A stretch of DNA of 56,887 bases from an uncultured Clostridia bacterium (GCA_947627755.1 CANQXD010000005.1:1-56887), one strand, 5' to 3'; shown: positions 26,312 to 40,775, counted from the stretch's first letter. Numbers and translations are program-made. Notes: generated by a model not told the origin, from the sequence alone.

Positions 26312-26340
26312 TTGAAAAATGAAAAAAAATAAAGTATAAT
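26312..26340 (+). promoter_or_regulatory. Promoter of the T4SS-like operon
   Basis: TTGAAA, 17 nt, TATAAT. The surrounding about 35 nt are near-duplicated at 27315-27350. Confidence 0.55.
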
Positions 26341-26370
26341 AAAAATAGAAGAAAAAAAGTGGAGGAAAAA

Positions 26371-26724
26371 ATGAAAGCAAGAAAAAAGATAATGTATATA
26401 ATACTAATCATTCTAGTTAGCATATCAAGTATTAGCATAGCAACTGTTGATCCAAATAATTATGATCCAAGGCCTTCATTAAATAGTCAAGATTATGAAG
26501 AAGTACTTAATATGGTAGGAACAATAGTTGGAGCTATTACAAGTGTAGGCACTGTAATTTCTGTTATGATGGTAATCATACTAGGTATAAAATATATGAT
26601 GGGAAGTATAGAAGAAAAAGCAGAGTATAAAAAGAGTATGATACCAATGTTCATTGGTGCTATTTTACTATTTGCTGGTTCTACTATAGTATCTATCATA
26701 TACAGATTAGTTGAACAATTATAA
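26371..26724 (+). CDS. VirB2/TrbC-like pilin paralog 1
   Basis: Signal peptide, then two hydrophobic helices separated by the charged loop KYMMGSIEEKAEYKKSMIP. ATG at 26371 follows ggagga. Confidence 0.6.
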   Translation: MKARKKIMYIILIILVSISSISIATVDPNNYDPRPSLNSQDYEEVLNMVGTIVGAITSVGTVISVMMVIILGIKYMMGSIEEKAEYKKSMIPMFIGAILLFAGSTIVSIIYRLVEQL

Positions 26725-26743
26725 AAAATAAGGAGAACAAACA

Positions 26744-27241
26744 ATGAAACAATGTATAAAAATAATAGGAATAGGATGCATTCTTTTAATACTTTTCTCT
26801 ATGCAAGTAACATTAGGAGCACAAAAAGGACAATCCACTACAGAAAAGATAGAACGAGATAGCGTAGATTATACTGCAGGAGCACAAAAAGGACAATCCA
26901 CTACAGAAAAAATAGAACGAGATAGTGTAGATCATACGGCAGGAGAAATTATTAGTGAATCAAAAGAATTTATTAATACAGGAGAAAATTCAGGAAATCC
27001 AGCCATTAGTGAAGAAAATATGCAAAAATTATCAAATACCATTTATAATATTTTATTAGTTGTAGGAATTGCACTTGCGGTTGTTATTGGAGCAATACTA
27101 GGAATTAAGTTTATTACTGGTGGTGTCGAAGCACAAGTAGATGTTAAAAAAGCATTAATACCGTATATTGTAGGTTGTGTTGTTATTTTTGGTGCATTTA
27201 CTATTTGGAAAATTGTACTACAAATATTAAATGCAATGTAA
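26744..27241 (+). CDS. VirB2/TrbC-like pilin paralog 2, with an extended N-terminal region
   Basis: Signal peptide, a duplicated 21-aa segment, then a two-helix C-terminal module (GIKFITGGVEAQVDVKKALIPYIVG). Confidence 0.55.
   Translation: MKQCIKIIGIGCILLILFSMQVTLGAQKGQSTTEKIERDSVDYTAGAQKGQSTTEKIERDSVDHTAGEIISESKEFINTGENSGNPAISEENMQKLSNTIYNILLVVGIALAVVIGAILGIKFITGGVEAQVDVKKALIPYIVGCVVIFGAFTIWKIVLQILNAM
26816..26941 (+). repeat. 63-bp tandem duplication (2 copies) inside pilin paralog 2
   Basis: ggagcacaaaaaggacaatccactacagaaaa(g/a)atagaacgagatag(c/t)gtagat(t/c)atac(t/g)gca twice, encoding GAQKGQSTTEKIERDSVD(Y/H)TA. Confidence 0.9.
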
Positions 27242-27315
27242 ATGTAAAGAATACAAAAATAAACAAGGCATTAATTCCTAAAATATGAAAAAAAGGAAAA
27301 AAAACGAAAAAACAG

Positions 27316-38927: not shown

Positions 38928-38937
38928 ATTTTAGTAA

Positions 38938-39035
38938 TTTTAGGGACGTTTTAAAATTTTAAAAACAATCAAAACTTTAGAAGCGGAGTTAAAATTTTCA
39001 AATTGTGAAAAATTTAGAGACGGGGCAAAAAGTAT
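38938..39035 (+). repeat. Three degenerate 37-38 bp tandem units of the TTTAG(G/A)(G/A)(A/G)CG family
   Basis: Units start at 38938 (tttagggacgtttt..), 38976 (tttagaagcggagttaaaattttcaaattgt..) and 39013 (tttagagacggggcaa..). Confidence 0.75.
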
Positions 39036-39063
39036 AATAAAATGAAAAAAAGGCGGTTAAGTC

Positions 39064-40665
39064 GTGAATAAAGAAGAATATGTAGGGAAAATATTTCAAA
39101 TAAAAATAGTAAAAAAAGTAAAGAATTGGTACATAGCCAATATCATCAATAGCCAAGAAAAAGTATATATAGATGATACCCTTGAAATTTATGAAGAAGA
39201 CTTAACAAACACTATACAAAAATGTATCATCATAGAAAAAAGAGAAGGAAACCTAATAGGTTTTCTTCTTTCTAATCGTAAATTCATAAAAGACATCAAA
39301 AAAATTGAAAAAAAATTAAGAGAAAAAGAAGAATATCCATTTATAAAAGATATTTATTTAATGGAAAGATTAAAAATAAATGGAAAAATAGTAGGACTAT
39401 ACTTAGTAGATGAAGGAGAAATTAGTAAATATTATTTAGATACTACAGAAATAGGTACTTATGTCAAAAAAATAAAAGGAAATAATATTCTCTTTAAAGA
39501 AAATACAATAGAAAACGAACTTGCAAAGCAAATAAAAGATGTAGTGCAATCAATAGATTTAAACAAAAAAGAAATTTCATTAAGACAAGAGCAAGAAAAA
39601 GAAAAACACTTAATAGAAAAAGCATTAGGAATAGAAGAAAGGCAAATTACAAGAATAGTTACTTTAAACCTAAAGCAAGAAATAGAAAAACAAAAAGAAG
39701 CACTAGAAAATGAAAAAATAAGAGAAGAACAACACAGAAAAGAAATGAAATATAAAGATAATATAGCACAAAGAAATATATATAATCAAAAACAAAATAG
39801 CATAAAAGACGTAAACATTAAACAAGAAATGGACACAAAAGATAAAGTAACAGACATGAAAACCTTAGGAAAACTATTAAAAGACAATGGTAAACTCCCA
39901 CAAATAGAAGGAAAAGAATTTATCAAAATAGGTATCATTGAATCAAATGAAAGAGACAACTTATTAAATGAAAAAGGAGAAAAAGCAAAAGTAAACACAA
40001 CCAGATATTCTTTTGTGGCAATAAGTAAAGATGGCACAGTTGTACCTTTAGAAATAGAACAAGACCATACAGAAGGAAACAACCCAAGAAAAATAAACTA
40101 TCAAGTAAACCAAAAAGGACAAGTAAGTCAAGATACAGTATTATCCAGATTTAAAATTGGACAAGGAACATTTGCTATCAAAAATGGAAAATATGGAGAA
40201 ATAAAAGTATATCATTCACCACGAAAAACCATTGGAGGAAAAGGAGTAGAAGGAAATAAAAGCTTAGATAGAGAACTAGAAACCGATAATGTATGGGAAA
40301 TAAAAAAAGAAGAACGAGACTTAGCAGGAGAATATGAAGATGGATATAGAAGTGTAGAAGAAGGATATCAAGAAGCAAAATTACATGAAAATAAATCAGG
40401 AAAAATAAAAAATAACGACAATATGAAAATAGAAGACATTGATGGAGAAAAAAACACAAAATCACACGTACACGATAATGTAAATTACACAGACTTAGCT
40501 ATAAAATGGGGTTACTATAAAGAAGGAGAACCAAATACAGAAAAAGCAAAAGAATTATTCGAAGAAAAGAGAAAAGAAAATCCCCAAAAAGAAACAAAAG
40601 AAATAATAGAAATGGTCACAGACGAATTAGAAGAAGAACTAGGACACGACAGACTTAAATTTTAG
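39064..40665 (+). CDS. K/E-rich hypothetical protein (533 aa) bracketed by TTTAGGGACG repeats
   Basis: GTG start with a weak SD (aaggcgg). No motif recognised. Its TAG stop codon lies inside the first downstream repeat unit. Confidence 0.5.
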   Translation: MNKEEYVGKIFQIKIVKKVKNWYIANIINSQEKVYIDDTLEIYEEDLTNTIQKCIIIEKREGNLIGFLLSNRKFIKDIKKIEKKLREKEEYPFIKDIYLMERLKINGKIVGLYLVDEGEISKYYLDTTEIGTYVKKIKGNNILFKENTIENELAKQIKDVVQSIDLNKKEISLRQEQEKEKHLIEKALGIEERQITRIVTLNLKQEIEKQKEALENEKIREEQHRKEMKYKDNIAQRNIYNQKQNSIKDVNIKQEMDTKDKVTDMKTLGKLLKDNGKLPQIEGKEFIKIGIIESNERDNLLNEKGEKAKVNTTRYSFVAISKDGTVVPLEIEQDHTEGNNPRKINYQVNQKGQVSQDTVLSRFKIGQGTFAIKNGKYGEIKVYHSPRKTIGGKGVEGNKSLDRELETDNVWEIKKEERDLAGEYEDGYRSVEEGYQEAKLHENKSGKIKNNDNMKIEDIDGEKNTKSHVHDNVNYTDLAIKWGYYKEGEPNTEKAKELFEEKRKENPQKETKEIIEMVTDELEEELGHDRLKF

Positions 40666-40775
40666 GGACGGGTCTAAAAATTTAAAATTAATCGAAATTT
40701 TAGGGACGCGTCTAAAAATTTAAAACCAACCGAAACTTTAGGGACGTGGTTAAAATTTTCAAATTGTAGGTAACT
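40661..40775 (+). repeat. Three 37-39 bp tandem units TTTAGGGACG(G/C)GTCTAAAAATTTAAAA...
   Basis: Units start at 40661, 40698 and 40737. The first two carry the palindrome-like core TTTAGGGACG(C/G)GTCTAAA. The third matches the unit at 38976 (gttaaaattttcaaattgt). Confidence 0.85.

Follow-up and report, generated by a model that had tools for sequence, protein, structure and literature searches.

A chromosomal type IV secretion gene cluster with three VirB2-type pilin genes in uncultured gut Clostridia: a probable domesticated pilus system

What is a type IV secretion system (T4SS) doing among housekeeping genes, where no gene for the processing of transferred DNA is found nearby? The question is raised by a 56,887-base stretch of DNA (~29% G+C) from an uncultured Clostridia bacterium, called the window below. 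At 26312-40767 it carries a cluster of 11 open reading frames (ORFs; the initial annotation of the sequence had counted twelve genes), all running in one direction on the plus strand with short gaps or overlaps. Their products are three VirB2/TrbC-type pilins, a PrgI protein (VirB3), a TrsD-like protein, a VirB4 ATPase, a VirB6-like protein, two bitopic proteins with a predicted NTF2-like fold, an M23 hydrolase and an orphan. The comparisons described here suggest a chromosomal, vertically inherited monoderm T4SS of the mating-pair formation (MPF)-FATA-like type, whose DNA-processing and coupling functions were lost or were never at the locus. The T4SS was probably domesticated: its product would be a VirB2-type pilus, made without a coupling protein, with which the host contacts other cells.

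The distribution of the cluster was determined in a species-level scan with VirB4 as query (one genome per species), which yielded at least 570 confirmed relatives; the best 80 underlie the comparisons within TANB77. These are metagenome-assembled genomes (MAGs) of uncultured gut Clostridia from human, mouse, rabbit, deer and other hosts, and they include Clostridium sp. CAG:780, Candidatus Merdicola (L078) and two complete chromosomes (OZ007016.1, circular, 1.57 Mb; OZ006978.1, 1.70 Mb). As Merdicola is among them and is placed in the GTDB order TANB77, family CAG-508 (PMC13106387), the host clade is TANB77, an uncultured, low-GC order with reduced genomes (PMC11680825). The host genomes measure ~1.6 Mb.

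Nearly all 80 loci display the same gene order at the same chromosomal site: yqeY, two M16 peptidase genes, spo0E, three pilin genes, prgI, the trsD-like gene, virB4, the virB6-like gene, an NTF2 gene, the hydrolase gene, a second NTF2 gene, a variable gene and dac. Most of the loci that extend over the core genes contain their orthologs. The question of conserved or sporadic synteny, posed in the initial annotation, is thereby answered in favor of conservation. In the window itself, two M16 peptidases and Spo0E lie upstream, while dac (split by a frameshift), tRNA-Gly and tRNA-Cys lie downstream. The GC content is 0.26-0.34 in cluster and flanks alike, so that both the housekeeping flanks and the uniform composition described earlier hold. 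A link to sporulation was also considered, given the Spo0E neighbor and the M23/SleB-like hydrolase; nothing beyond the conserved adjacency supports it.

The constraint on the individual proteins is highly uneven. Mean pairwise identity is highest for VirB4 (85%, minimum 79%) and lower for the housekeeping neighbors YqeY (70%), M16b (68%) and M16a (60%). PrgI and the TrsD-like protein reach 61% and 58%, respectively. The exposed proteins evolve fast (28-49% identity, versus 85% for VirB4), and low values are found for the VirB6-like protein (34%), the two NTF2 proteins (34% for the one of 310 aa, 31% for the one of 438 aa) and the hydrolase (28%). VirB4 and M16b diverge in step (Spearman 0.84), and their correlation is higher than that between the two paralogs M16a and M16b (0.73). 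The catalytic motifs are invariant: both Walker A (GAGKS) and Walker B (V[LI][VI]DEAW) are present in 78 of 78 VirB4 orthologs. Together, the common site, the constraint on VirB4, the co-divergence and the invariant motifs point to a gene set that is old, passed on vertically and maintained by purifying selection, and neither to an ICE (integrative and conjugative element) nor to the remnant of one. They strongly support the preference for a domesticated, non-conjugative T4SS over a decayed ICE that had been voiced from the sequence of the window. Because at least 80 TANB77 species carry the cluster, nearly all of them at the same site, it is best read as an inherited cell-surface machine and not as a gene-transfer element.

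The genes that a mobile element would bring along were searched for as well. Relaxase, coupling ATPase, integrase and Rep were all absent from the Pfam and NCBIfam scans of the ORFs of the 57-kb window, as the initial annotation had reported; the Pfam scan covered non-overlapping ORFs of about 100 aa or more and a few shorter ones, the NCBIfam scan the cluster and the unassigned proteins. The only mobile-element gene in these scans is an IS110 transposase (138-1334), 25 kb from the cluster. No direct repeats resembling attachment (att) sites bracket the cluster within the window. Moreover, when the type IV coupling protein (T4CP) of C. beijerinckii was used as tblastn query, neither the window nor the 1.48 Mb of the 80 TANB77 loci (10-kb flanks) gave a convincing match.

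Where, then, did the system come from? Its relatives were ranked in a protein library clustered at 50% identity. After the TANB77 group, the first full-length relative is the VirB4 of a sister lineage of MAGs (64%); the next ones follow only at 41%. Large plasmids of Clostridium beijerinckii (p1) and C. botulinum (pINGR16-02E1 type) encode relatives at 41-42%. One of the cluster representatives at 41% (P0124) has its only genome relative, 66% identical to it, in the chromosome of Clostridium magnum. That copy (DSM 2767, L081) is interrupted by IS605/TnpB-type genes and its VirB4 is frameshifted; it exemplifies a decay that the TANB77 locus does not show. On the plasmids and in C. magnum the genes are ordered as pilin-like, small VirB3-like, TrsD-like, VirB4, VirB6-like and large hydrolase. 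In a neighbor-joining tree of the VirB4 cluster representatives, TANB77 adjoins the Clostridium plasmid clade. Based on this placement and on the identity of the nearest relatives, the TANB77 system most likely goes back to the capture of a conjugative module from Clostridia, which was then kept.

Could the cluster nevertheless be a decayed ICE or plasmid remnant, or part of a mobile element that has its relaxase, T4CP and integrase genes beyond the ends of the window? The plasmid-borne relatives and the decaying C. magnum copy would fit such an origin, as would the IS110 transposase and several split genes of the window. The latter are comM (Mg-chelatase family, 3636-4801), an SsuC-like ABC permease gene (14374-15181) and dac (40835-42077), each present as two overlapping ORFs, which are either assembly frameshift errors or pseudogenes. 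The T4SS genes, unlike these, are all intact in the window. The retained site in nearly all 80 species, the co-divergence of a VirB4 that is more conserved than its housekeeping neighbors, the invariant motifs, the uniform composition and the lack of att repeats in the window all speak against decay. The remnant reading is contradicted by these comparative data, and it is highly improbable.

In ~20 MAG species of the sister lineage, an orthologous cluster is found at another, internally conserved site, after PGI, TraX and SSB. VirB4 is 72-85% identical within this lineage and 57-76% (mostly 63-71%) identical to that of the window. Its loci (L084, L089-L102, L153, L155, L157 and L162) carry a small M23 gene on the opposite strand between SSB and the pilins. 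This lineage, also of uncultured gut Clostridia, further possesses extra genes without a known role and a 1171-aa M23 protein.

More remote VirB4 relatives (28-41%; L082, L085, L088, P0173 and P0464-P0467) display the order small protein, TrsD-like, VirB4, VirB6-like, and two of the three loci L082, L085 and L088 have an M23 hydrolase as well. In L082 and L085 dnaN directly precedes these genes, and in L085 there are type IV pilus genes next to them as well; by gene neighborhood alone, these contexts resemble those of the Candidate Phyla Radiation (CPR; PMC12102498). Genome scans with two further representatives, P0125 and P0147, gave no match. In a large clade of VirB4 relatives of 700-800 aa (the P0173 cluster and L088), contigs of ~97-99 kb recur, so that these may represent a family of extrachromosomal elements.

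The pilin genes open the cluster. Pil1 (26359-26724) matches the Pfam families PF04956 (TrbC, 2.5e-10) and PF18895 (T4SS_pilin, 1.7e-7) as well as the pilin-like family NF045849 (1.3e-7). It consists of a signal peptide and two hydrophobic helices with a conserved loop, EEKAEYKK. Pil2 (26744-27241; PF04956 1.2e-6, PF18895 6.3e-6, at the gathering scores) contains an in-frame tandem duplication of 63 nt (21 aa, 94% identical, 26815-26940) in its exposed N-terminal part. Pil3 (27378-27758; PF18895 4.2e-10, PF04956 1.2e-9) is the best conserved of the three, with a mean pairwise identity of 49% among its orthologs. The three pilins of the window are 34-41% identical to each other, whereas orthologous pilins are on average 39-49% identical between loci. 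Of 57 loci, 48 have the full set of three. All three matches reach or exceed the gathering scores of both families, which confirms the VirB2/TrbC-like assignment made at the outset. The alignment displays a signal peptide, a variable mature N-terminus and two hydrophobic helices around a conserved loop (GIKYMxGSxEEKAEYKKTMIPY), a layout that corresponds to the VirB2/TraA hairpin as judged from the alignment. Matches of the pilin profile to designed coiled coils in the PDB were dismissed as spurious.

It had also been remarked that VirB2-like pilins are unusual in Gram-positive T4SSs and that three occur here. The number stands, but they are not unique: single pilin-like genes are found on the Clostridium plasmids and in C. 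magnum, and NCBIfam contains a 'pilin-like' family from a Mycoplasma ICE. A further weak match to PF18895 lies near the N-terminus of the VirB6-like proteins (residues 161-228 in the window, residues 87-154 of the protein at 13085-15646 in L086, and the protein at 11560-13203 in L084). It is common to TANB77, the sister lineage and the C. botulinum plasmid, and it makes the VirB6-like platform protein look as though it carried a pilin-like hairpin of its own.

The pilin genes also appear to be transcribed on their own terms. A candidate promoter (TTGAAA-17-TATAAT) lies before pil1 at 26310..26346, with an 11/12 sigma-70 match at 26312-26340, and a second copy lies before pil3 at 27314..27350 (11/12 match at 27316-27344). 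These 37-nt elements are 89% identical. At the boundary between pilins and machinery, a hairpin followed by a T-run (27810..27844, -12.5 kcal/mol) would act as terminator or attenuator. Such a structure is found behind pil3 in 63 of 69 loci, but behind virB4 in 19 of 75 and behind pil1 in 3 of 51. Predicted over-expression of the subunits, conservation of their core and variation of their exposed part would all be expected of a protein that forms filaments.

The machinery begins with PrgI (27928-28275), the VirB3 equivalent, which matches PF12666 at 3.6e-7 (31.1 bits, above the cut-off of 27), in agreement with the initial annotation. It is followed by a protein (28268-29470) that had been described simply as a transmembrane (TM) coiled-coil protein. 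TM anchor and coiled coil are indeed present, but the protein is better understood as the N-terminal domain of VirB4 split off from the motor, with a coiled-coil insert and a lysine-rich tail. It has no family match above cut-off. Its residues 61-300 align to residues 2-203 of P0133 (E 1e-15), a fused VirB4 of 829 aa, whose residues 228-812 in turn match the VirB4 of the window; a second match is to positions 50-406 of Mbov_0397, a VirB4 model (1.9e-6). In the terms of the literature the protein would be TrsD-type, an identity that is based on these alignments to VirB4 N-domains and not on a TrsD profile. VirB4 is split in four of five other loci inspected closely, and in L080 the TrsD-like gene itself consists of two ORFs. 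The TrsD-like gene shares 56 nt with virB4, which lies in the +1 frame. Fusion of the two products by programmed frameshifting was considered, but the +1 frame is forced by the overlap and hence uninformative.

VirB4 (29415-31403) represents the C-terminal motor part. It lies above the Pfam cut-offs for P-loop_TraG, AAA_10 and DUF87, and it matches the CD1110 family (7e-61), Mbov_0397 (1e-56) and TraC (3e-42), all below the equivalog cut-offs. GAGKS is found at residue 273 and VLVDEAW at residue 527, so that the ATPase and the two motifs named initially are upheld by the family matches and by their invariance. The next protein (31419-33974) spans the membrane several times (polytopic), contains a repeat rich in Q, E and A and ends in a long C-terminal part that varies; a Q-rich tract (QQA/QQE) with a 9-nt period runs in frame at 32970-33158. 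Matches to polytopic conjugation proteins were found in 17 of 30 orthologs for pLS20_p028, in 11 for MMCAP2_0566 and in 8 for Mbov_0396, all below the curated cut-offs. One ortholog also matched the hypothetical-protein family ICE_VC0181.

Two bitopic proteins had been named as VirB8/TcpC-like candidates. Neither they nor the orphan have a family match, and the profiles of the two bitopic proteins gave no match to PDB sequences; the likeness to VirB8/TcpC exists at the level of the fold only. AlphaFold models, built on database homologs, and Foldseek searches predict VirB8/TcpC-class NTF2 folds for both, in line with the candidate assignment. The protein of 310 aa (34061-34993; mean predicted local distance difference test score, pLDDT, 87.2) is modeled with a TM helix, an NTF2-like domain and a beta-sandwich. 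Its Foldseek matches are NTF2-containing proteins, small beta-sandwich proteins and, weakly, a subunit of the F-plasmid outer membrane core complex (7spb_C1). The protein of 438 aa (37611-38927, pLDDT 89.8) is modeled as VirB8-class with a TM helix and three tandem NTF2-like domains; its best multi-domain matches are OrfG of ICESt3 (8s7l, 8e-4) and TcpC of pCW3 (3ub1, 4e-3).

Between them lies a TM-anchored cell-wall hydrolase of 876 aa (35000-37630), a candidate for the role of VirB1. Of the two domains claimed for it, the M23 peptidase is well supported (PF01551, 1.8e-35), while the C-terminal SleB-type domain (Hydrolase_2, PF07486) is a weak match below the cut-off (7e-4). The N-terminal 600 aa vary strongly between species.

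How could these parts work together? The genomes document which parts are present, that they are intact and inherited, and how they are constrained; from this we infer that a pilus is formed, with a target and perhaps a cargo. The three pilins would be made in excess from their own strong, duplicated promoter and enter the membrane via their signal peptides. VirB4 and its detached, membrane-anchored TrsD-like N-domain would dock on the platform of PrgI/VirB3 and the VirB6-like protein, whereupon the VirB4 motor would pull the pilins from the membrane and polymerize them. The M23 hydrolase would open the peptidoglycan, and the two bitopic NTF2-fold proteins would provide a scaffold that spans the wall. 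The resulting filament would contact other cells (bacteria or a host surface) and might double as a conduit. Agrobacterium can form its T-pilus without VirD4. The set of VirB2, B3, B4, B6, B8 and B1 in the absence of a T4CP would therefore correspond to the subset for pilus biogenesis.

Several points weigh against a domesticated, coupling-protein-independent pilus system. The cluster is known from its genes, and its TANB77 host is uncultured. A T4CP or relaxase could be encoded elsewhere in the genome, as the searches covered the window and the flanks. On the C. beijerinckii plasmid a T4CP-like gene lies 12 kb from the cluster, from which it follows that the ancestral system was probably conjugative. 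The profile of the pilins reaches TrwL/VirB2 in the PDB only at an insignificant E of 0.6. The VirB6-like protein has no match to the TrbL/VirB6 Pfam families, and its assignment is a likeness drawn from sub-threshold matches. No VirB5-like tip protein or adhesin was identified in the cluster. Finally, picking the best 80 loci by VirB4 similarity introduces a slight bias toward high VirB4 identity.

The first alternative use of such a machine is DNA exchange, either as DNA import in the style of ComB or the archaeal Ced/Ted systems, or as chromosomal conjugation with T4CP and relaxase encoded elsewhere. The parts list equals that of T4SS derivatives for DNA import (PMC12857230, PMC12102498), VirB4 weakly matches the CedD family (6e-6), and both dprA and comM are present in the window; the T4CP-like gene of the nearest plasmid relative also fits. 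However, dprA and comM are widespread housekeeping genes more than 20 kb away, comM is split, and the cluster contains no gene for DNA binding or DNA processing. No T4CP was found within 10 kb in the 80 genomes, and the essential role of the T4SS of Patescibacteria is independent of ComEC-mediated competence (PMC12857230). DNA exchange is thus considered unlikely.

The second alternative involves the last gene of the cluster. It encodes a K/E-rich orphan (39064-40665) without a TM segment or signal peptide and, as had been noted, without a recognizable family (no Pfam or NCBIfam match). Homologs (58-77%) occur in ~15 of the 80 loci, with faint matches (24-31%) in three more, so the gene would be accessory, lineage-specific and restricted to the closest relatives. 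Such a variable last gene could be the cargo of a coupling-protein-free system for protein or toxin export, which would deliver effectors to host or competitor cells in the style of Bordetella Ptl or Brucella VirB. Protein-secreting T4SSs without a T4CP do exist (PMC12102498), and the exposed components of the cluster evolve fast. Yet an export substrate sits poorly with an orphan that has neither signal peptide nor TM segment and is limited to close relatives, and no toxin/immunity pair or effector domain was recognized in the cluster by Pfam or NCBIfam. Additionally, the sole known protein-exporting T4SS of a monoderm (S. suis) has a VirD4 (PMC12857230). Protein export is accordingly rated as quite unlikely, somewhat below DNA exchange.

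The orphan is flanked by repeats of 38 nt. Degenerate palindromic copies lie on its left (38936..39040) and three tandem copies on its right (40655..40767), both listed on the plus strand and the latter with the core TTTAGGGACGnGTCTAAA. This palindromic core has 4 matches versus 0.06 expected by chance. A further copy lies at 42047-42079, and among the fetched loci the motif is otherwise present only in L005. As the repeats flank the orphan and the motif occurs in one other locus only, the orphan may have been inserted recently, or the repeats may be a lineage-specific array, REP-like (repetitive extragenic palindromic) or regulatory.

With the domesticated pilus system as the preferred reading, a bolder proposal can be formulated, for which the odds are low: TANB77 would depend on the T4SS pilus, together with its conserved tight adherence (Tad) pilus, for obligate contact with gut microbes or a host surface, and the T4SS would be near-essential. 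TANB77 may be contact-dependent, as it is uncultured, has reduced genomes and lacks many growth-related traits. If true, the order would be a Firmicute counterpart of the epibiotic lifestyle of Patescibacteria, the near-essential role would explain why VirB4 is the slowest-evolving protein of the neighborhood, and co-culture with a partner would be a route to cultivation. TANB77 is common in human and animal guts, and the locus is relevant to attempts to cultivate it. In responders to checkpoint immunotherapy, no other taxon was reported to be enriched as consistently as TANB77, and a surface pilin was put forward as the active molecule (PMC11680825). Another set of surface pilins in the order, predicted to be abundant and evolving fast, would bear directly on that work.

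A few neighboring features complete the window. A skipping-rope RNA motif (RF02924, 61.9 bits, E 1.8e-12) is located at 42792-42872 (plus strand), just downstream of tRNA-Gly and tRNA-Cys. At 43007-43312 (minus strand), an ORF for a PBECR3 nuclease (phage-Barnase-EndoU-ColicinE5/D-RelE-like) stands between the tRNA genes and two giant surface proteins with DUF11 repeats; the ORF may mark a small islet that entered at these tRNAs. The two giants had been called thioester adhesins. Strong DUF11 repeats are found in both, but a thioester domain matches in the first only, at a borderline 2.9e-4, and nothing supports a link to the T4SS.

The only conserved gene cluster of TANB77 found in the literature searched is the one described by Kim et al. 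(2024): a Tad pilus with CpaB, TadZ, CpaE, a TadA/CpaF ATPase, TadBC and type IV-like pilins (PMC11680825). The two share the host order and the order-wide conservation of a surface-filament locus. They are not the same locus, however, as the present cluster has no match to T2SSE, T2SSF or CpaB and its ATPase is VirB4-type. The Tad-pilus paper does not mention T4SS, VirB or TrbC (PMC11680825), and no published description of a TANB77 T4SS was found in the literature searched. In the window, 4 kb upstream of the T4SS locus, a protein of 526 aa without Pfam or NCBIfam match is encoded at 20448-22028 (plus strand). Its N-terminus, MNIRKSKG-ITLISLVVTIIILIILAG, resembles a type IV prepilin signal, and the protein may be a large Tad/T4P-type (type IV pilus) pilin like 'pilin 938' of the published cluster.

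The archaeal Ced/Ted systems and Helicobacter ComB resemble the TANB77 cluster in being chromosomal and vertically inherited and in combining a VirB4-type ATPase with VirB2-like pilins and a polytopic protein, without T4CP or relaxase. They are distant in sequence, and the monoderm envelope, the wall hydrolase and the NTF2 scaffold proteins set TANB77 apart. With the conjugative monoderm T4SSs (pCF10 Prg, pCW3 Tcp, ICESt3, the Tn916 and conjugative transposon (CTn) families and the Mycoplasma ICE with Mbov_0395-0397), the cluster shares VirB4, PrgI, a polytopic, putative VirB6 analogue, an NTF2-fold VirB8-class protein (TcpC, OrfG), a wall hydrolase and a pilin-like small protein (Mbov_0395 family). 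Unlike these, the TANB77 locus has a fixed site, vertical inheritance and no T4CP, relaxase, origin of transfer (oriT) or module for integration or replication. Its pilin triad has a promoter and terminator of its own, and its VirB4 is made as two polypeptides.

The Clostridium plasmids and C. magnum are nearer, with the same gene order and, on the plasmids, a VirB4 that is 41-42% identical. The plasmids carry a ParM-like partition gene, recombinases and, in C. beijerinckii, the T4CP-like gene. In both, a single pilin-like gene and a C39/3D hydrolase take the place of the triad and the M23 enzyme. Their modules are sporadic, and decaying in C. magnum, whereas that of TANB77 is clade-wide and syntenic.

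Among known systems, the chromosomal T4SS of Patescibacteria comes closest. It consists of an MPF-FATA-derived VirB4, TrsD, PrgI, VirB6 and M23/lysozyme hydrolases, without a relaxase, and its pilin arrays hold 2-11 VirB2-like pilins with an average identity of 25% (Quinonero-Coronel et al. 2025, PMC12102498). In Southlakia epibionticum ML1 it was shown to be essential to epibiotic growth (PMC12102498, PMC12857230). In a review of December 2025 it was stated that, among monoderm T4SSs, VirB2-type pilins occur only in Patescibacteria, which makes these T4SSs unique among monoderms in their potential for conjugative-type pili, and that the known functions of Gram-positive T4SSs are nearly all DNA transfer (PMC12857230). 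Both systems belong to monoderms with reduced genomes and are chromosomal, inherited vertically across a clade, without a relaxase at the locus or a T4CP nearby. In both, a divergent array of VirB2-like pilins (PF04956, PF18895) adjoins virB4, accompanied by PrgI/VirB3, a TrsD-type protein, a VirB6-like protein and a downstream M23-type hydrolase.

There are differences as well. The TANB77 host is a Firmicute (Clostridia) of ~1.6 Mb that is not ultrasmall, its locus does not lie near dnaA or dnaN, and its three pilins are more alike (34-41%) than the 2-11 of Patescibacteria. Moreover, it has two clear NTF2/VirB8-class proteins, which are rarely detected in CPR. As the design is fixed and strongly constrained across a Firmicute order, TANB77 would be another, independent lineage in which to study what a monoderm T4SS of the pilus type does without a relaxase. 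The design as such was already known from Patescibacteria but was believed to be missing from other single-membrane bacteria; what would be new is a relaxase-less T4SS of the VirB2-pilus type in ordinary Firmicutes.

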